64,000 bases of DNA, taken from positions 9,007-73,006 of the forward strand of contig JABMNZ010000025.1 of NCBI GenBank assembly GCA_013204395.1. The letters are read 5' to 3'. Positions 7,653 to 57,306 of the stretch are shown here, piece by piece. This stretch comes from Parcubacteria group bacterium (GTDB lineage Bacteria; Patescibacteriota; Patescibacteriia; UBA9934; GWF2-40-263). The notes under the pieces are model-generated. The model did not search any database and was not told the DNA's origin. It worked only from the letters and a program-made list of their open reading frames with translations. Made by a program: the position numbers and the translations under genes. Every line of letters begins with the position of its first letter. The stretch's first letter is position 1.

Positions 7653-9722
7653 ATGCCGCTACTGATTATGCGGCATTTATCTTTATTTACGGAAGCTAAG
7701 CTTCCGACAACAAAGGGTTTTTTTGCGGGGCTAGTGATAGCTTCGCTCGTTTTAACTACTTTTCCTGCGCAGGCTCAGTCAGGTGATCGTTTTGACGATG
7801 AGTTGTGGTACCTCGATCAAATCTCTTTAGATCAGGCTGACATAAAGACTGGGCTCTCACCGACTGTCGTTGCTGTGCTTGATGCTGGGTTTGATTTTGA
7901 TCACGAAGATCTTGATGGTCAGTACTGGGTTAATACAGACGAGACGGCCGGTGATCAGACTGATAATGATGGTAATGGGTATGAGGATGATGTGATGGGA
8001 TGGGATTTTGTTGATAACGATCCAGATCCGTCCCCAGACACAACACCACCTATAAGGGATTCGGTTGTGTCTCACGGAACCGTTATTGCTGGAATAATTG
8101 TTGCTAAGCAGGGGAATGGTTTTGGTATTCGTGGCATTGCGCCTGAGGCTAAGATCATGCCACTACGTGTATTGAATCGCGACGGAGGTGGCTCGACAAT
8201 TGATGTCAGGCGTGCTGTCCGCTACGCAGTTGAAAACGGTGCGGACGTGATTAATCTCAGCATAAACTTTACTACCTCAGATCAGAGGCTTCGTGAAACA
8301 CTTGAGTGGGCACACGACCAAGGGGTGATTATTGTTGGGGCAATTGGCAACGGCAATACTGACACAGATCTCACACCAGTCTATCCAGCCTGCTATGACG
8401 GCGAGATTGGAAAGAATATTGTTATTGGTGTTGGCGCAAGTGATCGTTTTGATAAAAAAGCTGAGTTTTCAAATTTCGGCAGCAAGTGTGTAGACCTTGT
8501 CGCCCCCGGCGTGGATATTTTTGCAACCGTGTATCACGATCCGTCACAACTCTTACTAAGTACTGCTTACTCGTCGCCGTGGGAAGGAACATCTTTAGCA
8601 GCTCCTATCGTGTCCGGAGCTGCAGCACTTTTACGCGGCATGTATCCGTCCATTACCCCTGACCAGGTTCGCAATGTTCTTAAACTCTCTGTTGATCCAA
8701 TAAAAGAAACATCTCTTGAGGCGCGAATACGTCTTGGTGCTGGTCGGTTGAATGTTGCAAAGGCACTTGAGGTAGCAAAGATTGTTGTTGCTGGCCCACG
8801 TACTTCTGTGGCAAAGCAGGATATTTCCACCACAAGCTTTGCGATTGCTCAGGCCCATGGGTCAAGTCCTCAGGTTCGTCGGTATGATGGCAGGGGGAAT
8901 GTGATCGCAGATTTTTATGCATACAACAAAGCATTCACAGGAGGGGTGCGTGTAGCTATGGGGGATGTTGATGGTGATGGTCAACTTGAAATAGTGACGG
9001 GCGCTGGACCAGGTGGGGGGCCACAGGTTCGAGTGTTTGATTTAGATGGTCGACCAGAAAGACAATTTTTTGCCTTCGAGGAAGGAGGACGTGGCGGAAT
9101 CTATGTGGCTACAGGCGACACAAATGGAGATGGTATTGATGAGATAATTGTAACCGCGGACCGTGACAGCACTGGACAGGTTAGGATCTTTAATCAGCAC
9201 GGTCACTTAAAGGGTTCGTTTTTCCCGCTTGGAAGAACAGATGCAGCGCTGGCGGTGAGTGTTGCTAATCTAGACGATGATCCTGAAGAGGAATTGCTTA
9301 TCTCTACGATGGCCGAGTCTGATGGAACGGTTTGGGTTTATGATGGTACGGGGGTTTATGTCCGTTCGTTTGTTGCTCTTAATGGTGAAGTGGACAGCTT
9401 AACTACTACGACAGCGGATTTGGATGGTGATGGTGTTTCGGAGATACTCGTTGCATCTGGCCCGGGTCACACCCCAAGGGTTTCCGTGTATAATCAACAA
9501 GGAGTGTTGTTGGATACTTTACTTGCGTTCGCATCGAATTTTATGGGAGGAGTATCTGTAACCGTTGGGGACATTGATAACAATGGCCGTAAAGAAGTTT
9601 ACACAGCTCCACTCACAGCTGGTGGGCCACAGGTTCGAATTTTTAATCAGACGTTAGATCTCATTGGAGGTTTTTTCACTTTTGACCAAGGGAATCGTTA
9701 TGGAACATTTGTTTCGATGTAG
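7653..9722 (+). CDS. subtilisin-like S8 serine peptidase with C-terminal FG-GAP repeat beta-propeller
   Basis: Catalytic triad contexts VAVLDAGFDFDHEDL (Asp), HGTVIAGII (His) and GTSLAAPIVSGAAALL (Ser). Four or more GDVDGDG..EIV / GGPQVRVFD FG-GAP-type repeats. Start is ATG 7653 or 7668 (signal peptide MRHLSLFTEAKLPTTKGFFAGLVIASLVLTTFPAQA). The track ORF begins at 7494 and overlaps the upstream gene. Confidence 0.8.
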   Translation: MPLLIMRHLSLFTEAKLPTTKGFFAGLVIASLVLTTFPAQAQSGDRFDDELWYLDQISLDQADIKTGLSPTVVAVLDAGFDFDHEDLDGQYWVNTDETAGDQTDNDGNGYEDDVMGWDFVDNDPDPSPDTTPPIRDSVVSHGTVIAGIIVAKQGNGFGIRGIAPEAKIMPLRVLNRDGGGSTIDVRRAVRYAVENGADVINLSINFTTSDQRLRETLEWAHDQGVIIVGAIGNGNTDTDLTPVYPACYDGEIGKNIVIGVGASDRFDKKAEFSNFGSKCVDLVAPGVDIFATVYHDPSQLLLSTAYSSPWEGTSLAAPIVSGAAALLRGMYPSITPDQVRNVLKLSVDPIKETSLEARIRLGAGRLNVAKALEVAKIVVAGPRTSVAKQDISTTSFAIAQAHGSSPQVRRYDGRGNVIADFYAYNKAFTGGVRVAMGDVDGDGQLEIVTGAGPGGGPQVRVFDLDGRPERQFFAFEEGGRGGIYVATGDTNGDGIDEIIVTADRDSTGQVRIFNQHGHLKGSFFPLGRTDAALAVSVANLDDDPEEELLISTMAESDGTVWVYDGTGVYVRSFVALNGEVDSLTTTTADLDGDGVSEILVASGPGHTPRVSVYNQQGVLLDTLLAFASNFMGGVSVTVGDIDNNGRKEVYTAPLTAGGPQVRIFNQTLDLIGGFFTFDQGNRYGTFVSM
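7690..7706. repeat. perfect 17-bp palindrome CGGAAGCTAAGCTTCCG (copy 1 of 3), embedded in-frame in the signal-peptide n-region of the S8 protease
   Basis: An exact 17-mer with a central AAGCTT. The identical core recurs at 19200-19216 and 57287-57303. Three exact copies of a 17-mer in 64 kb is far above chance. Confidence 0.8.
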
Positions 9723-11802
9723 TCCGTTCTTTTACAAGGCAAAACAGGGGGCCATTTTTTGTTTGCTCTTTATTATTGCTTTGCCGGTTTACGCGCTGAC
9801 ACCGAACGATGATTATTATTCCGAGCAGTGGTACATGGAGACCATGGGAGCGCAGATTGCATGGGACGAAGAGACTGGTGATGGTTCTGTTGTTGTTGCT
9901 GTTTTAGATACTGGAATTGATTTGGACCACCCCGATCTTGAGGATAATATTTGGGTGAACTTAGGTGAGATCGCGGGCGATGGTATTGATAATGACAATA
10001 ACGGTTATATAGATGACGTGAACGGTTACGACTTTGTCGATGAAGACGGAACTCCGGTTCCAGATCGCTTTGGGGGGTTTGATGTAGACGCTGTTTCTCA
10101 TGGGACTGTTATAGCCGGCATCGTTGGTGCAGTTGGGAATAACGATGAGGGGATGGCGGGTATCAACTGGAATGTAGAACTCATGTCTGTAAGAATTTTG
10201 GATAGCAATGGTGTGGGTGATTCAAATCTCGCAACTAATGGTGTTGATTATGCCGTAGATAATGGGGCAGATGTTATTAACTTAAGTTTCACTGGGTTTG
10301 ACCACGATGAGCGATTACGTCTTGCCCTACAACGGGCTTTTGAAGCTGGGGTAGTAGTTGTGGCGGCTGTTGGGAACTCTGATAACGGAGGGGTAAATAT
10401 TGATAACAGACCAATCTTTCCTGCGTGTTATGGAGAACGAGCGGATGAAGATTGGATTTTAGGTGTGGCGGCAACGGACGCAAATGATGTGAAAGCAGAT
10501 TTCTCAAACTACGGAGCAACCTGTACGGATATATCTGCTCCCGGTGAGGATATTTTTGCCACGATCTATCAAGACGACGATTGGCCAGGACTTGAGGAGG
10601 GATTTTATCAATCTGGTTGGTCAGGGACATCTATGGCGTCCCCAATGGTGGCAGGCGCTGCGGCTTTGTTAAAGTCTCACTATCACTCTCTGACACCAAG
10701 CGATATCAAAAGTGCTTTGAGATTATCTGTGGATCCTGTGAAGGCAACCGGTGATGCTGTTGGGAAAATGGGATCCGGGAGATTAAACATTTCTAAAGCA
10801 CTTATCCTTGCCGCTTCTTATGCAGATGAGGGCGATGGGGATGATGATGAAGTAACCACAATGACCGAAACAACGAGTTCAAATTCGAGCTACAGAATCG
10901 CAGTTGCGCCAGAAAGTGGTGGTCCACCAACTGTGAGAGTGTTTACAAATTCTGGAGACGAAATAGTCGCGAGCTTCAATGCCTATGACGAATCTTTTAC
11001 TGGTGGAGTTCGACTGGCTATGGGAGATGTTGATGGCGATGGGGAGGAGGAGATTGTGACCGTGCCAGGTTCAGGTGGTCCCCATGTTCGCATATTTGAT
11101 CTAGACGGAAATCTTGAAAGTGACTTTTTTGCATTTTCGACATCCATGAGATCTGGGTTGTATGTGGCAACGGGGGATATTGATGGAGATGGACTTGAAG
11201 AGATTGTTGTGAGTACTGACGAGGGAGGTGGCGCACTTGTCAAAATTTTTGATAACAACGGTGATCAAATCGGCTCTACTATTGAGCCGTTTGAAGATGT
11301 GCCAGCGCCGCGCAGTGTGCGTGTGGCCATGGGAGATGTAGATGGTGATGGCGAGGACGAGGTGATCACAACATTGGGTGATGGTCATGAGCCATTGGTG
11401 CGTGTGCACAAAGCTGACGGAACATTTCAAAGCGAGTTTCTTGCCTATGCACAGACCTATGACAAGGGGGTCTTTGTGGCTTCAGGTGATCTAGACGGCG
11501 ATGGTGATGATGAGATTGTGACAGGTACAGATAATGGTGGTGGTCCACAGGTGCAGATTTATGATGGCGAGGGAGGGTGGCTTGGAACGTTCTTTGCCTA
11601 TGATGATCAGTTCCGTGGAGGGGTTCGTTTGTCTGTAGGGAATCTTTCTAAGTGGCCAGGTGCATCAATTATTACTGCCGCAGGACCAGGGGGAGGCCCA
11701 CATATCCGAGTTTATAATGGATACGCCTCTTTAATAGGAACGTTCTTCTCAGATGACGAAGGTGATAGAGGGGGGGTTAACTCTGGAGCCTGGAGTCTCT
11801 AA
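9700..11802 (+). CDS. second subtilisin-like S8 peptidase with FG-GAP repeats (tandem paralog)
   Basis: VAVLDTGIDLDHPDL, HGTVIAGIV, GTSMASPMVAGAAALL; seven or more FG-GAP-like repeats (AMGDVDGDGEEEIV, ATGDIDGDGLEEIV...). ATG 9700 gives the signal-anchor MEHLFRCSPFFYKAKQGAIFCLLFIIALPVYA. The track start 9664 is a TTG. Confidence 0.8.
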   Translation: MEHLFRCSPFFYKAKQGAIFCLLFIIALPVYALTPNDDYYSEQWYMETMGAQIAWDEETGDGSVVVAVLDTGIDLDHPDLEDNIWVNLGEIAGDGIDNDNNGYIDDVNGYDFVDEDGTPVPDRFGGFDVDAVSHGTVIAGIVGAVGNNDEGMAGINWNVELMSVRILDSNGVGDSNLATNGVDYAVDNGADVINLSFTGFDHDERLRLALQRAFEAGVVVVAAVGNSDNGGVNIDNRPIFPACYGERADEDWILGVAATDANDVKADFSNYGATCTDISAPGEDIFATIYQDDDWPGLEEGFYQSGWSGTSMASPMVAGAAALLKSHYHSLTPSDIKSALRLSVDPVKATGDAVGKMGSGRLNISKALILAASYADEGDGDDDEVTTMTETTSSNSSYRIAVAPESGGPPTVRVFTNSGDEIVASFNAYDESFTGGVRLAMGDVDGDGEEEIVTVPGSGGPHVRIFDLDGNLESDFFAFSTSMRSGLYVATGDIDGDGLEEIVVSTDEGGGALVKIFDNNGDQIGSTIEPFEDVPAPRSVRVAMGDVDGDGEDEVITTLGDGHEPLVRVHKADGTFQSEFLAYAQTYDKGVFVASGDLDGDGDDEIVTGTDNGGGPQVQIYDGEGGWLGTFFAYDDQFRGGVRLSVGNLSKWPGASIITAAGPGGGPHIRVYNGYASLIGTFFSDDEGDRGGVNSGAWSL

Positions 11803-11822
11803 GTTTGCTATACTACTGACAT

Positions 11823-12839
11823 ATGTCTCAAGAACTAAAGTTTACAAACAAAAATATCCTTGTGACCGGCGGTGCTGGTTTCATTGGCTCGCATTTATGT
11901 GAGCAATTGCTTCGCGATGATCATAGGGTGGTTTGCATAGATAACCTTTCAACGGGCACAGCAAGTAACATTAACGCACTTTTACAGAATCAGAACTTCA
12001 GATTTATTCGTTTGGATATCAACGAGCCATTTGATTTGGAGAGTCACGCAGAGCTCGCTACTTTCAAGTTACCTTTTCAAGGAATCCAAGAAATTTATCA
12101 TTTAGCTTGTCCAACATCGATTAAAAACTTTGACCAGTTTAAAGTTCAAACACTACTTTCAAATTCCTTGGGGAATTATCACGTGCTTGAAATTGCGAAG
12201 AAGTACCGTGCGCGCGTCATGCTGGCTTCTAGTTCCGTAGTGTACGGACAAAGAGCGGAAGGAAGTGGCATGGTTGAGGAGTCTGAAATGGGTTTGGTAA
12301 ATCAACTTTCTCAGAGAGCTTGTTATGACGAGGGTAAGAGATTCTCGGAAACCATGTTTGAGACTTATCGTCAGGTGCACGGTTTGGATATTCGTATAGC
12401 AAGAATTTTTCGCACGTATGGACCGCGCATGCCACTGTTTGATGGACAGCTCATTCCCGATTTTATCTTGAATGCCCTAGATGGAAATGACCTTGTCATG
12501 TACGGAGGAAAAGATTTCAGCACATCTCTCATGTTCATTTCAGATTTGATTGACGGCCTTGCTCGTATCATGGACGCCCCGGAATACACGGGTCCCGTGA
12601 ACATTGGAAGTGATGTTGATTTGAATCTTGTGGATGTGGCGCAGCAAATTATTGAGATGACCAGCTCATCTTCTAAAATCGTTGATGGAGATAATTTTGC
12701 CTTTCTTTCAGAGTTGGCTTTGCCAAGAATTACAGCGATTAAGGACCTTGGCTGGTTCCCCCTTGTGCGTTTGCCAGACGGTCTACGTCGCACCATTGAA
12801 TACATGAAGGCAAATAAGTTGCTTCTGACAAATGTATGA
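11823..12839 (+). CDS. NAD-dependent sugar-nucleotide dehydratase/decarboxylase, UDP-glucuronate decarboxylase (UXS/ArnA-DH)-like
   Basis: ILVTGGAGFIGSHLCEQLL Rossmann motif, IYHLACPTS and YDEGKRFSETM (YxxxK) signatures resembling the UXS family. Confidence 0.65.
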   Translation: MSQELKFTNKNILVTGGAGFIGSHLCEQLLRDDHRVVCIDNLSTGTASNINALLQNQNFRFIRLDINEPFDLESHAELATFKLPFQGIQEIYHLACPTSIKNFDQFKVQTLLSNSLGNYHVLEIAKKYRARVMLASSSVVYGQRAEGSGMVEESEMGLVNQLSQRACYDEGKRFSETMFETYRQVHGLDIRIARIFRTYGPRMPLFDGQLIPDFILNALDGNDLVMYGGKDFSTSLMFISDLIDGLARIMDAPEYTGPVNIGSDVDLNLVDVAQQIIEMTSSSSKIVDGDNFAFLSELALPRITAIKDLGWFPLVRLPDGLRRTIEYMKANKLLLTNV

Positions 12840-17281: not shown

Positions 17282-17340
17282 TTGACAAAATCTATTAAAT
17301 AGGGTACTTTTTGTCGTTCGCTCAACCAGAAAGGAGGTCC
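17282..17340 (+). promoter_or_regulatory. candidate sigma-70 promoter plus strong SD for the ABC exporter
   Basis: TTGACA (17282-17287), 17-nt spacer, TACTTT; AAAGGAGG sits 5 nt before the TTG start at 17343. Confidence 0.4.
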
Positions 17341-17342
17341 AT

Positions 17343-19145
17343 TTGAACTTCTGGAAGCGATATTGGGCTCTCACGAGTCCGTTCAAGCGTGACATTGGTT
17401 GGTCCATCGGTTGGATCGCTGTGGCAACGTTGATGAGCCTTGCGGCTCCCTACGTCAACAAGTTGGTCTTTGACTTGGTCAACATCTGGTGCATGCCTCA
17501 GACGGGATCCCATGTCGGGGTCATCGAAACTCTGAGCGGGTGGATGCCCAGCGCGAACACCATGTGGTGGCTCGCCGGCACAATCATCCTGATCAAGGTT
17601 GTTGTCGAAGGTCTTTCAAGCACGGTGGGAATGCTCAACCAGCGCAGCTGGCTCAAGCTCATCCTGCTCATGAACGAGCGCATGCCCGTTTTGACCATGA
17701 GTCACTTGCTCAAGCTTTCCATGGGTCACCACATCCGTGAGAGTACGAGCAAGCAGATCACCAAGCTAGAGCGCGGTATCAACGCCGCGAGCCAGCTCAC
17801 GGATCGTCTCTTCGGAAGACTCCTGCCCGAACTCCTCGTCATTCCAGTCTTTTCAGTGGTCCTCTTGGTCCTTGATTGGCGTGTTGGGGTGCTAAGCCTA
17901 GTGCTGGGGGTGGTGAGTGGAATTTGGTCGGTGTACGATTTCCGGTCACTAACCCCACATCGCAAGAGGATGGAGACGCTCTACCAACAATCGAGCACCA
18001 TCGGCTACGAAGCCATCAGCAACATCGCGACCGTTCAAGCATTCGGTTGCGAGCAGCACGAACGTGGAAGGATCAAGGGCATCCTCGCGAATATTCGTGC
18101 GGTCGAATGGGCTCAACTGGCACGTGCCATGTTCGGTGGGTACCTACGAGACGGGATGTCCAACATCTCCGGTGCTGCCGTCATCTTGATTGGTCTCTGG
18201 GGACTTCAGTCCAATGCCATGTCATTGGGAACGATGGTGATGCTACTTCAACTCAACGGTCGGTTTATCCGTTCGTGTCGCACTGTGACGCGGGAATGGA
18301 TGGAGATGGGGCGGAATCAGGAGTCGCTCTCACACCTCATGGACCTGCTGGACAAGCAGCCTGACGTTGTATCGCTTCCAACAGCGGTTGACGTAGGTTC
18401 GTCGGTTGGAGATATCGAGTTTGAACAGGTGGTCTTCTCCTACGACGGCAAAGGTCCTGCAGTACAAGACGTCAGTTTCCTGGCCAAGGCTGGGGAGATG
18501 GTGGCGATTGTCGGTCCGTCAGGATCTGGTAAGTCCACTCTGATCTCGCTTCTGCTGCGCGCCTACGACGTGGAATCGGGTGCAATCAGGATCGGGCGAC
18601 AGGATCTCCGTGTACTGAGCCTGGACAGCTGGCGCTCCAAGGTGGGCATTGTTCCACAGAGCGTGGAGCTGTTCTCCATCTCTATTGCTGCCAACATTGC
18701 CTACGGGCGACAAGGCGCAACGGATGAGGAGATCATGGCGGCAGCCAAGCTTGCTGGAGCTCATGAGTTCATCTTGGCCAAGCCAGACGGCTACGACACC
18801 ATCGTTGGTGAAAGGGGCCTGGATCTTTCCGGTGGCGAGCGCCAACGGATCGGGATCGCACGCGCGATCCTCCGGGATCCACAGGTTCTGATCTTCGACG
18901 AGGCAACTAGCAGCTTGGACGTCATTTCCGAGGCTCACATCCAGGAAGCACTGGAAACGCTCCGCAAGGACCGAACGACCATCGTGGTCGCTCACCGGTT
19001 CTCAACGATCAAGAAGGCTGACCGCATCGTGGTCATGGACGGCGGCCGAATCGTTGCCCAAGGAACGCGCGAGGAACTGCTCGAAGGCAGCCCGCTCTTC
19101 ACCGAGTTGGCACGCCTGCAAAGCGAACTCGCAATCCGCGACTGA
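17343..19145 (+). CDS. ABC transporter, fused permease/ATP-binding exporter (MsbA/ABCB-type)
   Basis: 600 aa with six TM helices, then Walker A GPSGSGKST, signature LSGGERQR and Walker B LIFDEATS. TTG start with a perfect SD. GC content is visibly higher than the flanking DNA. Confidence 0.8.
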   Translation: MNFWKRYWALTSPFKRDIGWSIGWIAVATLMSLAAPYVNKLVFDLVNIWCMPQTGSHVGVIETLSGWMPSANTMWWLAGTIILIKVVVEGLSSTVGMLNQRSWLKLILLMNERMPVLTMSHLLKLSMGHHIRESTSKQITKLERGINAASQLTDRLFGRLLPELLVIPVFSVVLLVLDWRVGVLSLVLGVVSGIWSVYDFRSLTPHRKRMETLYQQSSTIGYEAISNIATVQAFGCEQHERGRIKGILANIRAVEWAQLARAMFGGYLRDGMSNISGAAVILIGLWGLQSNAMSLGTMVMLLQLNGRFIRSCRTVTREWMEMGRNQESLSHLMDLLDKQPDVVSLPTAVDVGSSVGDIEFEQVVFSYDGKGPAVQDVSFLAKAGEMVAIVGPSGSGKSTLISLLLRAYDVESGAIRIGRQDLRVLSLDSWRSKVGIVPQSVELFSISIAANIAYGRQGATDEEIMAAAKLAGAHEFILAKPDGYDTIVGERGLDLSGGERQRIGIARAILRDPQVLIFDEATSSLDVISEAHIQEALETLRKDRTTIVVAHRFSTIKKADRIVVMDGGRIVAQGTREELLEGSPLFTELARLQSELAIRD

Positions 19146-19191
19146 CCGAGCCTGTGCTCGGTCGAGGGACTCCACGAGTCCCTCTTTTTTG
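19146..19191 (+). terminator. twin hairpin terminator after the ABC exporter
   Basis: CCGAGC-CTGT-GCTCGG followed by GAGGGACTC-CAC-GAGTCCCTC, then TTTTTT. Confidence 0.6.
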
Positions 19192-19197
19192 TTGCCC

Positions 19198-19219
19198 GTC
19201 GGAAGCTAAGCTTCCGGCC
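19198..19219. repeat. palindrome element GTCGGAAGCTAAGCTTCCGGCC (copy 2 of 3)
   Basis: This 22-mer is identical to 57285-57306. It sits immediately 3' of a terminator at the right border of a GC-rich insert. Confidence 0.8.
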
Positions 19220-19332
19220 TGTATAGAAAAAAACGACCCTATGGTCAAAAACCATGCATTGAATGCAACAATCGATACTAAGTTTAGTTATGAATCATGC
19301 ATTCAATGTGCGATATATTGTTTGTCTGACAA

Positions 19333-19358
19333 ATAAAAAAACGACCCGTATGGTCGTG
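19333..19358 (-). terminator. minus-strand terminator for the 19386..19778 gene
   Basis: The reverse complement reads CGACC-CATACG-GGTCG followed by TTTTTTT. A near-duplicate motif AAAACGACCCTATGGTC occurs at about 19228. Confidence 0.5.
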
Positions 19359-19385
19359 GTGGTTGGGGGGCGAGTTGGTGGAGAG

Positions 19386-19778
19386 CTAGGAGAAGAAGCC
19401 TCGAGTGAGCGAGATCACTCGGTCGCGACGTTCGGAGTTCAGTGCCATTGCAGCGACGATGGCGGTCTGGCCATCGAGCTCATGCAGGCCTTCGGGCACA
19501 GTCGGCGTCACAGGCTCGGCGCTCTCGATGACGATGCGGGTGTACGAGCAGATGCCGCCATCGATCATCTTGAAAGGCAGGATGTGAGCGCAGCGCGTGC
19601 GCAGGGAGATTTCTCCGATCACGGGAACGCTGTCGGTCATGCCGGTGCCCAAGGCAGCCAGCACGATCATGGCTTCGGCGAGCGCCTCGGGGGAGTCGAA
19701 GGTGACTTGGTGGTTCTCAATCACCTGACTGAGCTCACCTCTTTGAAAGACCAGGATCTTGAAAGCGAGTGTGAACAT
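19386..19778 (-). CDS. Roadblock/LC7 (MglB-like) domain small protein
   Basis: 130 aa; the pattern ...EALAEAMIVLAALGTGMTDSVPVIGEISL... resembles robl/LC7 proteins. GGAGA SD. GC-rich. The overlapping plus-strand ORF 19263..19844 looks like antisense noise. Confidence 0.45.
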   Translation of the reverse strand: MFTLAFKILVFQRGELSQVIENHQVTFDSPEALAEAMIVLAALGTGMTDSVPVIGEISLRTRCAHILPFKMIDGGICSYTRIVIESAEPVTPTVPEGLHELDGQTAIVAAMALNSERRDRVISLTRGFFS

Positions 19779-20120
19779 GGTGGGTCTCCACGGTTGGTGT
19801 TCGGCAAGAGTAGATCACAATTGCCGCGGTGGGTCAATATTTAAGTGGAAATATGGCCGACGAGTTTATCCACATTCTTAGTCTACTGGGAGTCTGTATA
19901 ACTAACACAGCGCATAGCCGTAGGGCGTTAAGTGAAATAATAATACATTCCTTCCGTCACTATCGTGGTGGTTGGAAATCAAGATGATTTCCCTTTGCTA
20001 TTTCTAAACTAAAAACCCCTTCTTCTGAACATCACCTTTTTGATGTGCAAAAGAAGGGGTGGGGCGCAGCTTGTGGCTGCGCCCCGACGATTCGTTATCC
20101 CGCCGAAGCAGGATGTATCA

Positions 20121-20330
20121 TCACCCCCCTGCGTCTTTCTTGTGTCTCACGTTGTGGTAGACGCTGTAACCGACGCCGTAGACGAGGAGCAAGGACAGCA
20201 TGATCATGGGGATCAGCTCCAGCGGCTCCTCCTTCCACAAGCCGGCGTGGACGTTCCATCCCAGAATGAAGACAGCCGGGCCAAAAATCCCGACACCAAT
20301 GGCAATCTTGGCGATGAACCTGCTGGACAT
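20121..20330 (-). CDS. small two-TM membrane protein
   Basis: The internal ATG (MSSRFIAKIAIGVGIFGPAVFILGW...) has a perfect GGGAGGA SD 5 nt upstream. 69 aa, GC-rich. Confidence 0.5.
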   Translation of the reverse strand: MSSRFIAKIAIGVGIFGPAVFILGWNVHAGLWKEEPLELIPMIMLSLLLVYGVGYSVYHNVRHKKDAGG

Positions 20331-20532
20331 AAGGTCCTCCCTTTTGGGTGATGATGTTGTCAGTAAATACCTGTTCTTGGTTCGCCGACAACAGGGTTGC
20401 GAGCAGTACCATGAGATACAGGATAGGCAATTCAAACATTTCAAGGCGTTTAAGTCAATAGTCGCGCCCCATAAAATTGCTCAAATAAGCAAGATCTTAA
20501 TACCCAGGCAAACAAAAGACCTCTCAACAAAA

Positions 20533-30101: not shown

Positions 30102-30119
30102 ATACGACGGCCGTCGCAT
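30102..30119. repeat. 16-bp-class perfect palindrome ACGACGGCCGTCG(T/C) element, copy 1 of 3
   Basis: ATACGACGGCCGTCGCAT followed by AAAGCGTTTTTTT. Copies 2 (30673-30690) and 3 (54025-54044) share a ~30-bp consensus ACGACGGCCGTCGYATRAAnnGTTTkTT. Confidence 0.8.
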
Positions 30120-30140: not shown

Positions 30141-30692
30141 ATGTCAAAGAAAAGAATTCCAAAAACAAGAGCGTATTTGCAAAAACTTACAAGGCGAATA
30201 GAACGACTCGAATCAGATATACCTATTAGTTTTGGGGCACGTGGTACAGGGGTGAGAGCAGGATCGTTTGAGATCGGTGCAAGAATCGAGAATCGAATTC
30301 AAGCAAATAAACTTAGAGTCGAAAGAGATTTGGTCAGAAATGGACTCCTAGAGATTCAGCAGAGAGGGGCTGAGACTACTTTTAGCTTGACTGTAGCGGG
30401 ATTATTACAGGTATTGAAAGACAGGATTGTTCTGGAGAGGAGAGAGATGCTTGAAGATGAGCGTTGTTTTGTTATCTTTGATGTTCCAGAAGATATTCGA
30501 AAAACCAGAAATACATTACGTCACTTTTTAAAACAAGCCGGATTTAAGCAAGTTCAGCAAAGTGTTTGGGTGACAGATAAGGATGTTGCTGATGACATGA
30601 GACAACTTGTTGAAGAACTTAAGATCTCAGATTGGGTTCGAGTGATAGTGGGGCGTTTGATCGAGACGGAATATACGACGGCCGTCGTATGA
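30141..30692 (+). CDS. winged-HTH + Cas2-fold-like domain protein (PaaX-like architecture); putative regulator or nuclease
   Basis: C-terminal CFVIFDVPEDIRKTRNTLRHFLKQAGFKQVQQSVWV...DDMRQLVEELKISDWVRVIV matches the Cas2 pattern (beta1-D, basic helix, G..Q.SVF). N-terminal LVRNGLLEIQQRGAETTFSLT looks like a recognition helix plus wing. The ORF ends inside palindrome copy 2. Confidence 0.5.
   Translation: MSKKRIPKTRAYLQKLTRRIERLESDIPISFGARGTGVRAGSFEIGARIENRIQANKLRVERDLVRNGLLEIQQRGAETTFSLTVAGLLQVLKDRIVLERREMLEDERCFVIFDVPEDIRKTRNTLRHFLKQAGFKQVQQSVWVTDKDVADDMRQLVEELKISDWVRVIVGRLIETEYTTAVV
30673..30690. repeat. palindrome TACGACGGCCGTCGTA, copy 2
   Basis: Perfect 16-bp palindrome overlapping the last codons and stop of 30141..30692. 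Confidence 0.8.
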
Positions 30693-30763: not shown

Positions 30764-30842
30764 ATTGACAAAGAGGTGTCGCGCTGCTAAGTTCTTTCTC
30801 TCTGTCATCCGGCAGGGGTTTGCTAAGGAGTCTCATAATAAG
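30764..30842 (+). promoter_or_regulatory. conserved cassette promoter/leader A
   Basis: GATTGACAA...GCTGCTAAGTT...CTCTGTCATCCGGCAGGGGTTTGC, then AAGGAG and ATG 30843. Near-identical to leader B, with an 18-nt exact block. Confidence 0.55.
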
Positions 30843-31588: not shown

Positions 31589-31672
31589 GTTCCAGAATGA
31601 GTCCATACGAGGACTAATTCTGGAGTAAAGATTTTCTACGCGCGGTCTGAAATACGGCTGCTTTTTTGTTTG
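31589..31672 (+). repeat. cassette 3' module A: 14-bp-stem hairpin plus conserved 43-nt element
   Basis: TTCCAGAATGAGTCC...GGACTAATTCTGGAG hairpin, then GATTTTCTACGCGCGGTCTGAAATACGGCTGCTTTTTTGTTTG (31630-31672). The same 43-mer, with 1 mismatch, occurs at 32753-32795. Confidence 0.7.
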
Positions 31673-31701
31673 AGTCGAATTGTCGATCTTATACCTTTAC
31701 G

Positions 31702-31806
31702 ATTGACAATAAGTGAAATGGCTGCTAATTTGAGTCCTCTCTGTCATCCGGCAGGGTTTTGCAGATGCAGCTCTGGCCCACCAAGGTCAGTCTGTGCGAG
31801 GTTCAC
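31702..31806 (+). promoter_or_regulatory. conserved cassette promoter/leader B
   Basis: GATTGACAA...GCTGCTAATTT...CTCTGTCATCCGGCAGGGTTTTGC; GAGG SD before ATG 31807. Confidence 0.55.
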
Positions 31807-32711: not shown

Positions 32712-32795
32712 AATCCCGAACCTGCGCTTAGATGTGCAGGTTCGGGATTGTGGATTTTCTACGCGCGGTCTGAAATACGGCCGCTTTTTTGTTTG
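32712..32795 (+). repeat. cassette 3' module B: perfect 14-bp-stem hairpin plus conserved 43-nt element
   Basis: AATCCCGAACCTGC-GCTTAGAT-GCAGGTTCGGGATT, then GATTTTCTACGCGCGGTCTGAAATACGGCCGCTTTTTTGTTTG. Confidence 0.7.
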
Positions 32796-32841
32796 GTTGG
32801 AAGTTTGACGACATTTTATACACATCGTAGAGTATCGCCGT

Positions 32842-38164: not shown

Positions 38165-38344
38165 TGGTATAAGAATGGAGGATACACCTGTCGAAGTGGA
38201 GGGTGTGAGACAGGTTGTCTCAGCCGTCATCATGGAACTCAGTTTCATCATGAGACACTTATAGTGCCCATCAAACCTGGTTTGATTCACGTAAGGTTAC
38301 TTGCTCCGATACGACATCGGAGTTTTTTGTTATGATAGCCGCGC
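38165..38344 (+). promoter_or_regulatory. structured ~165-nt leader ending in an intrinsic terminator 17 nt before the hflX ATG (candidate attenuator or riboregulator)
   Basis: Extended -10-like TGGTATAAG at about 38165. Three additional stem-loops: ACCTGTC...GACAGGT, TGTCTCA...TGAGACA and ATCAAAC-CTG-GTTTGAT. Terminator CTCCGAT-ACGAC-ATCGGAG followed by TTTTTT (38304-38328). A possible 30-codon uORF (MEDTPVEVEGVRQVVSAVIMELSFIMRHL) is also present. Confidence 0.4.
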
Positions 38345-52184: not shown

Positions 52185-52194
52185 GAGATAATAA

Positions 52195-52220: not shown

Positions 52221-52245
52221 GTATACTGAATAAAATAGTATTTTT

Positions 52246-53931
52246 ATGAAAAGATTTTATTTACTCCTACTTCTTACCCTTCTCATTATCCCAGGGGTGA
52301 TCTATGCCTTTAATCAAGATCTGACTGAGCGGCTACATGGGTACATCTTGCTCCAGGTCGATCAGCATGGGGAAGCATGGTATGTGCGGGACACGGATGA
52401 CAAACGCTATTACATGGCCAATGGGGATGCGGCGTACTCAATGATGCGTTTCTTTTCTTTGGGGATTACAGACGCTGACCTGGCAACGATTCCTTCTGTT
52501 TCTGATACCACAGAGATGTTGGCATCTGCGTCGGCATGTGATTATAACTCCCTCGCTAACAGTCTCAAGGGAAAAATATTGCTTCAGGTCGAGCAACATG
52601 GGGAGGCGTGGTACATCTATCCGGATCGATGTCGGATGATTTACATGGAAGACGGAGCTGCGGCTTACACCATCATGCGCTTTTTGGGACTTGGAATTGC
52701 GGATAATGATCTTGCACAAATAGAGATGGGAAAAGTGGATGGCTATACCGAGGTTCAATACGATGATTCGACATCGATAGACCCCAATGAGACGAGTGAG
52801 TCCACGGCCGTATCATGGCCATCAGATATAGGAACGTCACATTTTGGTCGGCTGACAGAATTTGGACGGATTGACTCACAGCTTGAGGGGGGATGGGTGC
52901 GCCCACACTCAGGACCGTTTGTTTGGGATTGGATTGAGGGTACTCAGGGCACCTACCAATGGGATCAGGCCGATGAGGTCGTTGCTAGTCTTCAGGGGGA
53001 TCGTCAGGCCATTCTTGCTACGATCTGGGGATTTGCAAACTGGGATCAGGAGCAATGCCATGACAGCAGCGACGATACAAACAATGGATTCATTCGCACC
53101 ATGGATTGGATGCATGCACCGTGTGATGAGAGTGCTTATCTCGCTTGGTTAAGTGATGTGGTTGAGCGCTATGATGGTGATGGGGTCGATGACATGCCGG
53201 GACTTGAATACCCCGTCAGGCATTGGGAGATTTTTAATGAGCCGTCAATGCAAGATGGCACCGTCTTCTTTCAGGATGATGCTCAGACCTATGCTGAACT
53301 TCTGGCCGTTTCGTATGAAGCGATTTTAGCCGCTGATTCAAATGCCATCGTCCTTCCGGCGGGGCAAGCTGGAATGCATGCAAGTTCAGTAGCTTATTGG
53401 GATAACGTCCTTGGCGAGATTAGTGGCGTATTTGATATCGGAAACATTCATTCAATTTCATCGAGTAATGTTTTTTGGAGCGATGACTATCGAGACTATC
53501 TGGACGATTTTGGGTATGCAGATACCGATTTCTGGGTCACCGAAGCACTTGTTGGCGATTTTTCACAGAATCTTTCAGATGATGACGCGGCACAACTGAC
53601 GTTTACAAGCTATGTCAACGCCTTTGCAAACGGAGCCTCTGTTATATTCAACGTTGGCGCTCACGATCCAACGGGTGGGCCTGGAGAAGCCTCTGAAGAG
53701 ACATTCGAGATGATGGCTGCCTTCATTGGTGCGTTTAGCCGTGTTGAACGCATGGACGATACGACCGTCCTTTTTCAGCTACCTGACGGAACAACTGTTT
53801 ACGCAATATGGGACGGAGCCTCGTTACCAAATGGAGTCACCGGGACAATGAGTGTCTTGGAGTATGACGGTGATAGCTATCAGGCAGAAGCCGATCACGT
53901 CACTAGCACCATTCCATTGTTTGTTTATTAG
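52246..53931 (+). CDS. secreted protein with two tandem ~60-aa N-terminal repeats and a GH-A-like (NEP motif) catalytic domain
   Basis: Signal peptide MKRFYLLLLLTLLIIPGVIYA. Repeats LHGYILLQVDQHGEAWYVRDTDDKRYYMANGDAAYSMMRFFSLGITDADLA and LKGKILLQVEQHGEAWYIYPDRCRMIYMEDGAAAYTIMRFLGLGIADNDLA. HWEIFNEPS motif. Confidence 0.5.
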   Translation: MKRFYLLLLLTLLIIPGVIYAFNQDLTERLHGYILLQVDQHGEAWYVRDTDDKRYYMANGDAAYSMMRFFSLGITDADLATIPSVSDTTEMLASASACDYNSLANSLKGKILLQVEQHGEAWYIYPDRCRMIYMEDGAAAYTIMRFLGLGIADNDLAQIEMGKVDGYTEVQYDDSTSIDPNETSESTAVSWPSDIGTSHFGRLTEFGRIDSQLEGGWVRPHSGPFVWDWIEGTQGTYQWDQADEVVASLQGDRQAILATIWGFANWDQEQCHDSSDDTNNGFIRTMDWMHAPCDESAYLAWLSDVVERYDGDGVDDMPGLEYPVRHWEIFNEPSMQDGTVFFQDDAQTYAELLAVSYEAILAADSNAIVLPAGQAGMHASSVAYWDNVLGEISGVFDIGNIHSISSSNVFWSDDYRDYLDDFGYADTDFWVTEALVGDFSQNLSDDDAAQLTFTSYVNAFANGASVIFNVGAHDPTGGPGEASEETFEMMAAFIGAFSRVERMDDTTVLFQLPDGTTVYAIWDGASLPNGVTGTMSVLEYDGDSYQAEADHVTSTIPLFVY

Positions 53932-53953
53932 ATTCAGTTATTAGTGAAGAAAA

Positions 53954-53981
53954 ACATTCGCCATGAGGCGGATGTTTTTTG
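53954..53981 (+). terminator. terminator after 52246..53931
   Basis: CATTCGCC-ATGA-GGCGGATG (one G-U) followed by TTTTTT. Confidence 0.55.
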
Positions 53982-54024
53982 ATGGTGACATGGTGTGATT
54001 ATGAGCAAATCAGTCCCGACGGAA

Positions 54025-54044
54025 ATACCGACGGCCGTCGTATA
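54025..54044. repeat. palindrome element ATACCGACGGCCGTCGTATA, copy 3 (1-nt insertion relative to TACGACGGCCGTCGTA)
   Basis: It shares the extended consensus with 30102 and 30673 and is preceded by a partial direct repeat CCGACGGAAATACCGACGG. Confidence 0.7.
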
Positions 54045-54093
54045 AATGGTTTTAGATCTTTCTCAATCAGACAACCATTTAAATGATCCATGT

Positions 54094-54121
54094 AAAGAAA
54101 AAAGACCCCTGCGTTGGGGTC
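54094..54121 (-). terminator. minus-strand terminator for 54132..54554
   Basis: The reverse complement reads GACCCC-AACGCA-GGGGTC followed by TTTTTTC. Confidence 0.5.
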
Positions 54122-54131
54122 GGTCGTGGGG

Positions 54132-54554
54132 TCAGGGGGTGTCGGACTTGAGCGGTGGGAGGTTCAGCGGTTCGCCGATCCAAACGATCTGGTCGCGAAC
54201 ACGTTGCCTCACGTGGTCGTTGAACGCGATTTCCTCGCTGTAGATGAGGAGGCCTCCGGTGTGTTGAATCCGGAGTCCGCGCTCTGTCAGGATGCACACG
54301 GCGGGGATCCCACCGGAGACACATGGGCGGACGTTCTCTCTCCAGGAGATGACGGCCGGAGTGACGGCCCTCTTGCAGTTTCCCGCGCCCCAGATGTCGG
54401 CGTAGGCTTCACTGCAGATCTGCTCGACGATCATGTCGATCTCAGCTTGCTCTTCCTTGTCAGGGTTGAAGATCCATGACACTCCCCCAACAAGCAGAAA
54501 AAGCATCCAGCCGATGAGTCCGGCAACCCAGAAGTATCTCAATGGATTCATTGT
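54132..54554 (-). CDS. hypothetical membrane-anchored Cys-containing protein (GC-rich islet)
   Basis: ATG 54552-54554 (MNPLRYFWVAGLIGWMLFLLVGG...) with GGGAGA 10 nt upstream. 140 aa. The track ORF extends further to 54692. Confidence 0.5.
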   Translation of the reverse strand, partial: TMNPLRYFWVAGLIGWMLFLLVGGVSWIFNPDKEEQAEIDMIVEQICSEAYADIWGAGNCKRAVTPAVISWRENVRPCVSGGIPAVCILTERGLRIQHTGGLLIYSEEIAFNDHVRQRVRDQIVWIGEPLNLPPLKSDTP

Positions 54555-54742
54555 GTTGGTCTCCCAGTGGTTACGCCACGAACCGTTCGTTGTGGGACTA
54601 CTTGAGTAGTAGCTTTCTAGGCTTACCCAGCCGTAAGGGGGTCTTGGCTTGCAAGAACGAGTTAATCTAGCCATATTTTCGTTCTTTGTCAACCCAAAGA
54701 GATCATAGGGTTGGTTATACTTTCTGATATACTACTTTCCAT

Positions 54743-55750
54743 ATGGAAAAGAAATACGTTGCTAATAAGGCGTTTATTGTGAATCAAGCTGGGAAAGTTC
54801 TTATGCTTCGCGATGCTGGGAAAGGCGATCATGTAAATGCGAAAGGGAAGCTTGGGTTTCCTGGTGGGCGCATGGATCGAGGTGAGACACCTCAAGAGGG
54901 TCTATTGCGCGAATTAAAAGAAGAGATTGGGGTTGAGGAGGGGGCACTCGATATCGGCCCACCGATTCATGTGAGTATCTGGGGTATAGGGGGAGATGTC
55001 CTTGAAAAGCCAATCATTGGAATTCACTATTTGTGTCGACCTCGTGGAGAGCTCACGATCACACTCTCTGACGAGCATGACGAGATTGTCTGGATTGATC
55101 CAAGGCAGTCTCTTCCAGAGGAACAGACAGATCACGACCTTAGAGCTCTTCTAGAGGCGTATAGGGCGCATGAGGGTATTGTTGTGGCGGCAGATGTGGC
55201 GATTAAGGGTCGACAGGGATACGGACTTATTCAATTATTCACAGGCAATGGTAAAGGTAAGACAACGGCTGGTATAGGTGAGGCGATTCGGGCTGTGGGT
55301 GCGGGTAAAAAAGTAGGAATTGTCTTTTTTGATAAGGGTGGTGACGATCATTATTTTGAAAGATTGGTGCTTGAAAAGCTTGATGGTGTTGATTTTGTGG
55401 CTACAGGTAGGGACAGAATTCATCCTTCCACAGGAGCGTTTGACTTTTCAATTCAGGACCTAGATTTGGTAGAGGCGCAGCGTGGCTTGGGGGAAGTCCA
55501 CAGGATGTTCACCGAAGGATACGATCTTGTCATCATGGACGAGATTAACTCAACAACAGACCTTGGTATGATCTCTGTGGAATCTGTTTTGGCAGCACTC
55601 GACAAGAAACCTGAGGGTACTGAGCTCATCATGACTGGCCGAAATGCTCCTCAGGAATTTCTTGATCGTGCGCATCTTGTCAGCGAGATGAAACTTAGGA
55701 AACACTATTTTTATTCAGGCGTGAAAGCACGTGAAGGCCTTGACTACTAA
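54743..55750 (+). CDS. NUDIX hydrolase - corrinoid (cob(I)alamin) adenosyltransferase CobA/CobO/BtuR-type fusion protein
   Basis: N-terminal Nudix box GGRMDRGETPQEGLLRELKEEIGV. C-terminal P-loop LIQLFTGNGKGKTTAGIG and MDEINSTTDLGMI, typical of the CobA family. Confidence 0.7.
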   Translation: MEKKYVANKAFIVNQAGKVLMLRDAGKGDHVNAKGKLGFPGGRMDRGETPQEGLLRELKEEIGVEEGALDIGPPIHVSIWGIGGDVLEKPIIGIHYLCRPRGELTITLSDEHDEIVWIDPRQSLPEEQTDHDLRALLEAYRAHEGIVVAADVAIKGRQGYGLIQLFTGNGKGKTTAGIGEAIRAVGAGKKVGIVFFDKGGDDHYFERLVLEKLDGVDFVATGRDRIHPSTGAFDFSIQDLDLVEAQRGLGEVHRMFTEGYDLVIMDEINSTTDLGMISVESVLAALDKKPEGTELIMTGRNAPQEFLDRAHLVSEMKLRKHYFYSGVKAREGLDY

Positions 55751-55762
55751 TGGTATTCAAAA

Positions 55763-55790
55763 CTCCCCCGCGTAACGGGGGAGTTTTTTG
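55763..55790. terminator. bidirectional terminator between convergent genes
   Basis: CTCCCCCG-CGTAA-CGGGGGAG flanked by A-run/T-run (AAAA...TTTTTTG). Confidence 0.65.
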
Positions 55791-56522
55791 TTACCGATAC
55801 TTTTCAACGAATCTACGCAGGATTTCCATAGGCACGGAGATCTCCTCTTTTTTACACCTTTCTTTTAAAGCCTCCGCTTCTTCAGGTGGGAAGTAGCCTT
55901 CATTTTTGTAGACATCGATTCGATCACAGACCCCTACGTTATCCAGCTCTGGGTGAAACTGAGTTGTGTAAACATTCTTTCCGATTCTGAATATGTTGTA
56001 AGGACATTGTTCAGATGATGCTAGCCACACAGCACCATTGGGTAGTTCCTGGCAGGCTTCTTTATGGCCAGTGAATGCTTGAAATGTGCTTGGCAGCCCC
56101 GTGAGAAGAGGATCGTCTTGGGCTTCAGGCTTTAACTTTATGGTGACACTCCCAGCGGCTTCCCCATACTTTTCCTTTGATACGAGACCTCCATGTTCTC
56201 GTGCAAGAAGGCCAAGTCCGTAGCACGCGCCAAAATAGGGAAAGTCCTTTGCGACAACACGTCTGAGTATTTCAGACAGCCATGCTTCTGCGGCAAGCTG
56301 GCGCTCGGACTTTTTCTCCTGAGCGTCGCTAACATTCCATGGTCCACCACCAACAATGATTCCTGAATAATCTTCAAGATTAATATCAGTAAGCTCGTCA
56401 GAGTCCATACGCATTCGAAATACATCTTCGGCGTTCATGTCGCCGTATTTCAAAATCGCGTCGAACTCGCCTTTAGAGACAAGGTCATTCTTACGTAGCT
56501 GTAAAATCAAGAATGGTTTCAT
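55791..56522 (-). CDS. class I glutamine amidotransferase-like protein
   Basis: Nucleophile context FGACYGLGLL, TTQFHPELD (His/Glu). 243 aa. Confidence 0.7.
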   Translation of the reverse strand: MKPFLILQLRKNDLVSKGEFDAILKYGDMNAEDVFRMRMDSDELTDINLEDYSGIIVGGGPWNVSDAQEKKSERQLAAEAWLSEILRRVVAKDFPYFGACYGLGLLAREHGGLVSKEKYGEAAGSVTIKLKPEAQDDPLLTGLPSTFQAFTGHKEACQELPNGAVWLASSEQCPYNIFRIGKNVYTTQFHPELDNVGVCDRIDVYKNEGYFPPEEAEALKERCKKEEISVPMEILRRFVEKYR

Positions 56523-56553
56523 ATAAGATCAATAATAATATTGAGTTCGAAGT

Positions 56554-56581
56554 TTGACAACTATTTATTCTCACGTATGAT
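56554..56581 (+). promoter_or_regulatory. strong sigma-70-like promoter at left border of GC-rich island
   Basis: TTGACA (56554-59), 16-nt spacer, TATGAT (56576-81). Two terminator-like hairpins follow (about 56627-56660 and 56672-56704) before the GNAT ATG at 56724. Confidence 0.45.
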
Positions 56582-56723
56582 GATTCTAGGTATGAATACA
56601 CAGATCCACACAACAACTTCACGCCGCCGCGGTCGCCACTAGGACGATCCGCGTTTTGTTATCATGCAACCGAGAGTCGTCCATAGGGCGACTCTTTTTG
56701 TTTTATCTAAAAAGGAGACGTCC

Positions 56724-57233
56724 ATGCCGACGATTCACACACATCCCTCATCTGTCCCGGATCACGTCTGGGACATCATCTCTGTGGCCACCACAGCAGA
56801 GCCAAAGATCGATTCCACCCGCAACACCCCTGAGAACCTCAAGGGTCTCTACCAGCGCCACCTTGCTGTGGTGCTCATGGCAGAAGGGGAGCCGGTCGGA
56901 TTCATCGCGGCCTGGCCGGTGGAAGATGGTTTCGCGGAGATCGGCTCCATCTGGATTCGCAGTGATCATCGTGGCAGGGGACTCAGTCACAAGCTATACG
57001 ATGCCGTGGCAGGTCTCAGAGGAATCAAAGAACTGGTGGCCTTCGGGGTCACAACCAACCCTATTTCCGTTCACGTCGGAAAGCGCGTAGGGCTGACGAT
57101 CGTCGATGACTGGAGCCGCCCGGTTCCCATGCATCTGACCTGCGGGCCTTGCGAGCTCATCGCACTCGCTGATCAGGCTACGTGTCCAAAACGAGGGACA
57201 TCATGTTGGCTTAGGGTCATGAAGCCTAAGTAA
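56724..57233 (+). CDS. GNAT family N-acetyltransferase
   Basis: AGGAGA SD then ATG 56724. IWIRSDHRGRGLSHKLYDAV (R/QxxGxG/A acetyl-CoA motif). GC-rich. The track ORF begins at 56664. Confidence 0.65.
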   Translation: MPTIHTHPSSVPDHVWDIISVATTAEPKIDSTRNTPENLKGLYQRHLAVVLMAEGEPVGFIAAWPVEDGFAEIGSIWIRSDHRGRGLSHKLYDAVAGLRGIKELVAFGVTTNPISVHVGKRVGLTIVDDWSRPVPMHLTCGPCELIALADQATCPKRGTSCWLRVMKPK

Positions 57234-57245
57234 CGCCCCGCACCA

Positions 57246-57280
57246 CCTGCCAGGACATACGGTCACGGCAGGTTTTTCTT
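57246..57280 (+). terminator. terminator after GNAT gene
   Basis: CCTGCC-(15 nt)-GGCAGG followed by TTTTTCTT. Confidence 0.55.
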
Positions 57281-57284
57281 ATCT

Positions 57285-57306
57285 GTCGGAAGCTAAGCTT
57301 CCGGCC
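57285..57306. repeat. palindrome element GTCGGAAGCTAAGCTTCCGGCC (copy 3 of 3)
   Basis: Identical 22-mer to 19198-19219, again directly after a terminator. Confidence 0.8.

Follow-up and report, generated by a model that had tools for sequence, protein, structure and literature searches.

A 64,000-nucleotide stretch from a Parcubacteria group bacterium (contig JABMNZ010000025.1, positions 9,007 to 73,006; the window hereafter) carries three exact copies of the 17-nt palindromic sequence CGGAAGCTAAGCTTCCG. We consider it likely that these palindromes are repetitive extragenic palindromic (REP) elements of a REP-RAYT system, i.e. one in which such repeats are paired with a tyrosine transposase associated with REPs (RAYT), and that they belong to a type with inner stem GGAAGC and loop TAA. 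The argument comes from related genomes, in which a transposase gene occupies a fixed locus, identical hairpins flank it in inverted orientation, the hairpin sequence covaries with the lineage, and further copies are dispersed at extragenic sites. Taken together, these features are the published REP-RAYT signature: RAYT genes are single-copy and sit at a shared extragenic location in related genomes, and the repeat tracks the RAYT lineage (bioRxiv 10.1101/2021.07.10.451892).

The three copies all lie on the plus strand (copy 1, 7690-7706; copy 2, 19200-19216; copy 3, 57287-57303). When up to three mismatches were allowed, the only extra matches in the window were the copies' own minus-strand images, with one mismatch at the centre. 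Shuffled windows contained a mean of 0.08 matches to CGGAAGCTAAGCTTCCG, and none of 100 shuffles reached six. A preliminary description of this stretch had already held three exact copies to be beyond chance, and this is confirmed. It had also spoken of a perfect palindrome; the architecture is in fact 8+1+8, and the central A stays unpaired, so that strict self-complementarity fails. Copies 2 and 3 are, as it stated, identical over 22 nt (19198-19219 and 57285-57306, GTCGGAAGCTAAGCTTCCGGCC), and each lies past the terminator of a GC-rich plus-strand gene. Upstream of all three copies there is T-rich similarity (repeat families D5 and D7). The window as a whole has about 48% GC, with GC-rich stretches.

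The motif CGGAAGCTAAGCTTCCG is not universal. In 596 Gb of representative genomes it was found in 82 stretches, compared to about 69 expected by chance, and most of these are the top part of unrelated terminator hairpins. In the related assembly BH28 (GCA_016844925.1) only one copy of the 17-mer is present. A scan of viral contigs for the exact 17-mer gave no match, and neither Rfam at gathering thresholds nor a tRNA scan found anything in the window. A function as DNA uptake sequence was ruled out because the half-site CGGAAGC is not enriched in the window, where it occurs nine times outside the palindromes (about 6.8 expected).

Transposase gene and flanking hairpins in related genomes

A metagenome scan with WCGGAAGCTAAGCTTCCGRC yielded 32 loci, many of them on contigs of 56-60% GC from two metagenomes that have genes in common with the window at 58-85% amino acid identity; the extended consensus of these loci is cctGTCGGAAGCTAAGCTTCCGACCTGGTTGACGAAAATGCACTT. 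In locus L097 (identical to L115), exact copies at 7973 (+) and 8745 (-) are inverted relative to each other, lie 770 nt apart and bracket a low-GC open reading frame (ORF) of 226 aa on the minus strand (7996-8676). The ORF was predicted to be a RAYT, and Pfam confirmed this with a match to the family Y1_Tnp (IS200-like) of 30.6 bits at a cut-off of 23. The downstream copy adjoins the stop codon (TAA-CCAG-GTCGG...), while the upstream copy is located about 85 nt before the ATG, beside a TTGACG hexamer. The motifs YH[IV]YNRG, NH[FY]H (HUH) and RY[IH]HxN (Tyr) show no or almost no variation among 38 homologues. The AlphaFold model of the protein reaches a pLDDT of 91.9, and the top match of a Foldseek search against the PDB is 4ER8, “REP associated tyrosine transposase bound to a REP hairpin” (E 2.6e-6, target TM 0.69), followed by the TnpA proteins of IS608 and ISDra2.

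Homologues with 57-78% identity are found in the gene order serS-RAYT-Ser/Thr kinase in L118, L119 and L120/L121; in L122, serS and the RAYT gene are followed by the contig end. This locus is held in six contigs from different lineages. Several of the homologues are labelled Candidatus Uhrbacteria by NCBI, and one was named “REP element-mobilizing transposase RayT” by the automatic annotation of the Joint Genome Institute (JGI). The RAYT gene, probably single-copy, occupies a conserved locus, which is consistent with vertical inheritance. The copies could also be decayed ends of an autonomous IS200/IS605 element, similar to palindrome-associated or miniature inverted-repeat transposable elements (PATE/MITE-like), with no domesticated RAYT involved. 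The enzyme indeed belongs to the same superfamily and has the HUH and Tyr motifs, the presumed single-stranded DNA hairpin substrates and the fold of that family, the folds of IS608 and ISDra2 TnpA are next best, and a disrupted homologue exists in L090. However, the Uhrbacteria gene is syntenically fixed across those six contigs and not multicopy, its flanking hairpins are identical inverted copies rather than distinct left and right ends, and its fold agrees best with that of the RAYT 4ER8, so that we regard this explanation as the least probable of all those considered here.

The disrupted homologue is a RAYT-like pseudogene at L090:3599-4063 (the same as L117) on a contig of 38-40% GC, with 41% identity over residues 6-128. 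An exact 17-mer lies before it, and it is interrupted by the 35-nt palindrome ATCAACAATAGGAAGCTAAGCTTCCTATTGTTGAT; it seems that the repeat has broken up its own transposase gene here.

The RAYT-flanking hairpins, one at the stop codon and the other about 85 nt before the ATG, form the 21-nt structure GTCG-N5-N3-N5-CGAC, and analogous gene-flanking hairpins are present in L118, L119, L120, L122, L123 and L124. Their inner stem and loop differ between lineages: GGAAGC/TAA in L097, GGAAGC/TTC in L124 and L123, GGACAT/TAA in L118, GTAAGC/TCC in L119, GGCGGC/TCA in L120 and GGTGGC/TGG in L122. In an alignment of 17 hairpins 96% of the cells pair, with compensatory changes on both sides in five of the nine pairs. 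The covariation score was not reached by any of 500 shuffles, and in controls with a slid frame pairing dropped to 24-41%. The full hairpin is GTCGGAAGC-TAA-GCTTCCGAC in the related contig of L097 and GTCGGAAGC-TAA-GCTTCCGGC (21 nt) in copies 2 and 3 of the window; the 21-mer written out whole is GTCGGAAGCTWAGCTTCCGRC, and the single-stranded form of the hairpin with its CTGG flank is GTCGGAAGCTAAGCTTCCGAC(CTGG). Directly after the hairpin, most RAYT-flanking and dispersed copies have CTGG or CTGC at the foot; the window copies have CTGT, CCGT and AACA.

Dispersed exact copies on the Uhrbacteria contigs of 56-60% GC have the RAYT-proximal flank CCTGGTTGACGAAAATGCACTT. All dispersed sites with resolvable context read as intergenic, and there are at least ten intergenic sites in related contigs; if the window is included, nearly all copies are extragenic and located beside terminators. 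In the relatives, direct hairpin pairs occur at distances of 43 nt or 257 nt. The sites are non-orthologous between genomes and the copy number varies (BH28, for example, lacks copies 1 and 2), a pattern that fits a dispersed repeat better than it would a conserved set of regulated genes. The contig of L123 ends in the hairpin.

Some of the dispersed loci have additional features. At L086 (~6850-6910), L107 (~9570-9642) and L114 (~6088-6140), REP units have a common flank that ends in a perfect DnaA-box-like TTATCCACA, and in L107 a lexA gene (Pfam LexA_DNA_bind and Peptidase_S24) lies about 90 nt downstream of the copy. Beside a tRNA gene, L088:1860-1990 (-) contains five hairpins at a spacing of 33-53 nt (GTCGAGCTTAGCTCGAC, CGGAAGCTAAGCTTCCG, GTCGAGCTAAGCTCGAC, GCGAAGCTAAGCTTCGC and CGAGCTGAGCTCG), which have the centre AGCT-W-AGCT in common and differ in their outer arms.

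The three copies and their genomic surroundings

Copy 1 (7690..7706, plus strand; 17-nt core CGGAAGCTAAGCTTCCG with flanks TA...AC) is located in a gene for an S8 protease (7668-9722, plus strand; Pfam Peptidase_S8 and FG-GAP). The protein is 100% identical to NCBI protein NQV89539.1 and has its best matches in Candidatus Uhrbacteria and Patescibacteria; the window is accordingly assigned to a Candidatus Uhrbacteria (CPR) genome. Its start is the ATG at 7668, and most of the orthologues listed begin with MRH[FL] or MRY[F]. The claim that the copy is read in frame in the n-region of the signal peptide was borne out: it makes up codons 8-13 (T8-E-A-K-L-P13), and its RNA folds into a 7-bp hairpin. 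The copy is exact in L084 (S8 protease 91% identical at the amino acid level) and differs by a single synonymous change in L085 (85%). The palindrome-encoded residues had also been suspected to be an insertion into the protease, which the alignments do not support. Compared with BH28 the site is ungapped, with CGGAAG alone in common, and the 92.6% identical orthologue P0252 has other residues at this spot with the length unchanged (SKGITFPKTKT where the window has FTEAKLPTTKG). An intragenic position is atypical for a REP.

The protease gene is preceded by a promoter-like ATGACA-N17-TACAAT (7626..7654, plus strand), which is 100% conserved in four genomes. The same holds for the region 7620-7680 as a whole, which comprises the promoter-like part and a start-codon hairpin AATGCCGC-N10-GCGGCATT, whereas the flanking coding DNA is 70-90% identical among these genomes. 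Gene callers render the promoter as “MTISKKIDTMPLLI”, and it is apparently conserved in more distant orthologues too.

Copy 2 (19198..19218, plus strand) is a 21-nt hairpin followed by CTGT. It lies behind the GC-rich gene of an ABC exporter (17343-19145, plus strand), whose intrinsic terminator (19164..19192, plus strand; hairpin 19164-19184 and TTTTTT) ends 6 nt upstream of the copy; from the end of the terminator hairpin at 19184 the copy starts 13 nt further on. Its own hairpin has a folding energy of -14.2 kcal/mol and no downstream T-run. A terminator-like hairpin with a T-run on the minus strand is found on the far side (19234..19247). The GC content at third codon positions marks a 130-aa minus-strand ORF (19386-19778) as the real neighbour, and the spacer is therefore convergent. 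The REP locus on BH28 contig 55 resembles a 46-nt stretch at copy 2, with 89% similarity.

Downstream of copy 2, two TGCATT-S-AATG(C) palindromes (19255-19267 and 19298-19308) lie 43 nt apart and could pair with each other to form a long minus-strand hairpin before a T-run; the first overlaps an ATGCATT that is conserved with the start of a BH28 pentapeptide gene.

Copy 3 (57285..57305, plus strand) is again a 21-nt hairpin. It is situated in a convergent spacer between a GC-rich GNAT gene (56664-57233, plus strand), for whose protein an exact look-up returned no record, and the gene of an ABC ATPase (57396-58220, minus strand). The GNAT gene ends in a hairpin with a U-run (57245..57278, plus strand; hairpin ~57245-57273 and UUUUU) 7 nt upstream of the copy. 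The ATPase has a terminator at 57368..57386 (minus strand), the hairpin sequence of which recurs at 38306; this hairpin, CCGATACGACATCGG with a T-run, is thus present at two unrelated loci, 38306-38327 (+) and 57363-57384 (-). A 35-nt stretch at copy 3 is 91% similar to L101/L104, in which the hairpin forms the upper stem of a terminator.

With this arrangement, the palindrome could be a reused transcription terminator or an mRNA 3'-stabilising hairpin, selected at the RNA level and without any mobility. All three copies come after a hairpin with a T-run, the hairpin is stable, it serves as the upper stem of a good intrinsic terminator in L101/L104, the 17-mer is used in terminators of many unrelated genomes, and the window contains other repeated terminator-like hairpins. 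However, selection on RNA would permit drift, whereas genomes with GC contents of 45% and 57% have 17-21 identical nt at sites that are not orthologous. Furthermore, the copies follow terminators that are already complete, copy 2 has no T-run of its own, and the hairpin is found on both sides of a transposase gene in seven lineages. As a full explanation, termination is therefore quite unlikely, but it is compatible with a REP as a secondary function, not as a replacement.

In the preliminary description, two of the copies were placed at the edges of acquired GC-rich inserts. The exporter can be checked in BH28, whose contig 35 (L083) is syntenic with positions 1-19.2 kb of the window. At the same locus BH28 has an exporter with 75% amino acid identity (neighbouring genes 70-88%) that is equally GC-rich (0.59 versus ~0.50), and its terminator is conserved, with no palindrome after it. 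This ordinary divergence, together with the raised GC content, indicates that the exporter is ancestral and the palindrome a later arrival. Copy 3 is internal to a GC-rich island of 6.2 kb (~56.65-62.87 kb) and not at its border. The claim was thus not upheld for either copy.

The more general form of this idea is that the palindrome is a recombination or cassette-border site, like attC, dif or the sites of restriction-modification systems, which travels with acquired GC-rich DNA. For this speak the two copies that adjoin GC-rich genes, the absence of the island at 56.6-62.9 kb between orthologous flanking genes in L093, the absence of the exporter block in a 92.6%-identical relative, and the inverted copies that bracket a gene of deviant GC in L097. 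But in L097 the copies bracket none other than the transposase gene, the exporter has been inherited vertically and is GC-rich in BH28 with no palindrome, no second or degenerate copy with up to three mismatches is found at the island edges, and neither an integrase nor an Xer-type spacer arrangement nor an HNH or restriction-modification gene was found nearby. We thus consider a border site scarcely probable: the exporter block and the island vary, yet the palindrome is no marker of where they end. Likewise, parS, dif and attC were rejected as candidates, since the 8+1+8 architecture misfits the two arms with a 6-8 bp spacer of dif and the R''/R' of attC. A recombinase, HNH endonuclease or restriction-modification system linked to AAGCTT, as proposed earlier, was not found; the enzyme that accompanies the palindrome in relatives is a HUH tyrosine transposase of IS200-like type. 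Of the suggested small mobile element with a site-specific AAGCTT role, the non-autonomous repeat of mobile type stands and the site-specific recombination is not supported.

The variable regions themselves can be described as follows. In the 92.6%-identical relative (JGI 3300072015), the gene table lacks the block of region 17300-20530, which comprises the exporter, the REP and two small genes, and has instead an additional 694-aa Wzy_C/TPR gene upstream of the BNR gene. The island 56650-62870 contains the GNAT gene, a minus-strand ABC-transporter operon and unknown genes.

Near the BH28 copy, about 360 nt away and beside secE-nusG-rplK, lies a GC-rich ORF of 540 aa (L065:3425-5047, contig JAERTI010000055). 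It matches the NCBIfam family TIGR-Tas RNA-guided endonuclease (E 2e-28, 99.8 bits at a cut-off of 100) and weakly IS110. It is surrounded by three copies of TGTTGAGCCCCCTG... (at ~2997, 5263 and 6031) and three near-identical terminators CCCACCCT..AGGGTGGTTTTTTCTTT (at ~3318, 5370 and 6085). A link of the palindromes to TIGR-Tas or IS110 was rejected, as this Tas-like gene is found near the BH28 copy only and has no homologue in the window or at the other loci. A TIGR-Tas array was also rejected, because the contiguous hairpins with a 3-nt loop differ from the stem-loop units of these systems (PMC12045711).

The window also has a second palindrome family, (A)TACGACGGCCGTCG(T)AT, at 30105-30116, 30676-30687 and 54029-54040, which lies within imperfect hairpins of ~36 nt; two of the copies bracket a gene for 183 aa (30141-30692). 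A 62-nt direct repeat (31618-31679 and 32741-32802, 85% identical) is terminator-like, and a 26-nt repeat (30798-30823 and 31737-31762) is 96% identical. The repeats in the GC-rich stretch at 31-33 kb suggest a local duplication or another repeat family.

Proposed mechanism and points weighed

In a REP-RAYT system, the REP would be a short hairpin that its cognate RAYT recognises in the form of single-stranded DNA and copies at a low rate to other sites. By analogy with E. coli TnpA-REP and the TnpA of IS608, the RAYT would bind the foot of the hairpin and the adjacent C(T/C)G(G/T) flank, and HUH/Tyr cleavage would be followed by joining of the single-stranded DNA. The enzyme acting on the three copies would be encoded elsewhere in the window's own genome. 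Copies 2 and 3 probably arose by duplication in this lineage once it had separated from BH28, as judged by their identity at 22 of 22 nt and the derived CCGGCC end that they have in common. Copy 1 may have landed in, or converted, a mutation-tolerant part of the signal peptide, where it would be tolerated.

A number of observations weigh against this reading. No RAYT gene was found in the 64-kb window by tblastn. The best NCBIfam family of the L097 ORF is REP_Tyr_transpos (NF047646), but with 30.7 bits at an equivalog cut-off of 80, and phmmer and profile searches of the PDB with the RAYT gave no match; at the sequence level the Uhrbacteria RAYT is only a distant relative of characterised RAYTs. 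REPIN-type inverted doublets (REPs paired within ~130 bp or less) are not present in the window, which has singlets only (n=3). Copy 1 lies within a gene, has neither the outer GT nor a CTGG-type flank, and aligns to BH28 without an indel, so that its arrival by transposition is not demonstrated. Copies 1 and 2 were aligned to BH28 in search of an insertion with target-site duplication, and no clean indel was seen; nor was a pair of empty and filled sites with clean boundaries or a target-site signature obtained. Finally, the symmetric covariation of the palindrome, taken alone, would equally fit a co-evolving dimeric DNA-binding protein.

The last point leads to the possibility that the palindrome is the operator of a dimeric regulator and that the three sites are part of its regulon. 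Apart from the covariation, which co-evolution with the regulator would also produce, the long exact palindrome itself is suggestive, as is its position 4 nt before a -35-like hexamer TTGAC[AGT] in L065, L103 and L107 and upstream of RAYT genes. However, two of the three window copies and the sites in L109 and L086 lie between convergent genes, where for copies 2 and 3 a promoter is unexpected. One RAYT-flanking copy overlaps the stop-codon region, the sites are not conserved at the orthologous BH28 genes, and the neighbouring genes have no functional theme in common. We thus hold an operator to be very improbable. A promoter module was considered as well and rejected: in many relatives the hairpin does have the hexamer behind it, but with a non-canonical -10 element, and the spacers just named are convergent. 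Both termination and regulator binding can be secondary roles of a REP, but on their own they leave the association with a transposase and the positions in convergent spacers unexplained.

A further-reaching variant of the REP interpretation would be an independently domesticated, hitherto undescribed RAYT lineage of the candidate phyla radiation (CPR). The mobilised unit would consist of the hairpin and the CCTGGTTGAC... flank, which overlaps the -35 region in the promoter-like sequence of the RAYT gene, so that dispersed copies could seed or modulate promoters, and the S8 protease copy would be an exapted coding or regulatory hairpin kept in at least three lineages. We think this variant rather unlikely. 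If true, promoter-modulating copies would be expected, for example, upstream of lexA (L107), a secreted protein (BH28) and an ORF (L103).

Relation to known systems and significance

The closest known counterpart is the REP of E. coli, with the bacterial interspersed mosaic elements (BIME) and the transposase RayT (TnpA-REP, YafM; structure 4ER8). As in E. coli, a short GC-rich hairpin has an apparently conserved short flank at its foot, one Y1/HUH transposase gene lies between inverted copies, extragenic copies are found at the 3' ends of genes, and the fold matches 4ER8 best. The host, however, belongs to the Patescibacteria (CPR) and not to the Gammaproteobacteria, the hairpin has 21 nt with a 3-nt loop and a CTGG-type flank, and only few copies are seen compared with hundreds. 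The flank of the E. coli REP is GTAG. In contrast to E. coli RayT, the protein has ~220 aa with an extra C-terminal helical region, 13% identity and a score below the NCBIfam cut-off.

Rickettsia palindromic elements (RPEs) of ~100-150 bp are found in frame in protein-coding genes. Copy 1 resembles them as a palindromic repeat that is tolerated in frame in a coding sequence, but the repeat is 17-21 nt long, sits in the n-region of a signal peptide and has caused no demonstrable gain in length. We know of no cognate transposase of RPEs.

Like the REPIN-RAYT systems of Pseudomonas fluorescens and other Proteobacteria (Bertels and Rainey), the RAYT described here has a conserved extragenic site and a repeat that covaries with its lineage. 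It differs from them in the lack of inverted doublets within ~130 bp; the window has singlets, and the relatives have direct doublets 43 nt apart. In the literature searched, no paper makes a meaningful connection between RAYT or REPIN and Patescibacteria or CPR. The unusual points are limited to the in-frame signal-peptide copy and to the putative mobilised flank, which overlaps the promoter-like region of the RAYT gene, and no new mechanism is indicated.

Recognition of the palindromes as REPs would explain why exact repeats break assemblies, as at the contig end in L123, why the hairpins can be mistaken for island borders or regulatory sites, and why odd signal-peptide residues are seen by gene callers. 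REP-RAYT systems have so far been characterised nearly all in Proteobacteria, and they are regarded as long-lived, vertically inherited replicators. The loci described here would extend their taxonomic range to the ~1-Mb genomes of episymbiotic CPR bacteria. The CPR case, in which the RAYT locus is fixed, the hairpins covary and differ by lineage and no more than a handful of copies are seen, would provide a minimal setting in which the spread and decay of such repeats can be followed.

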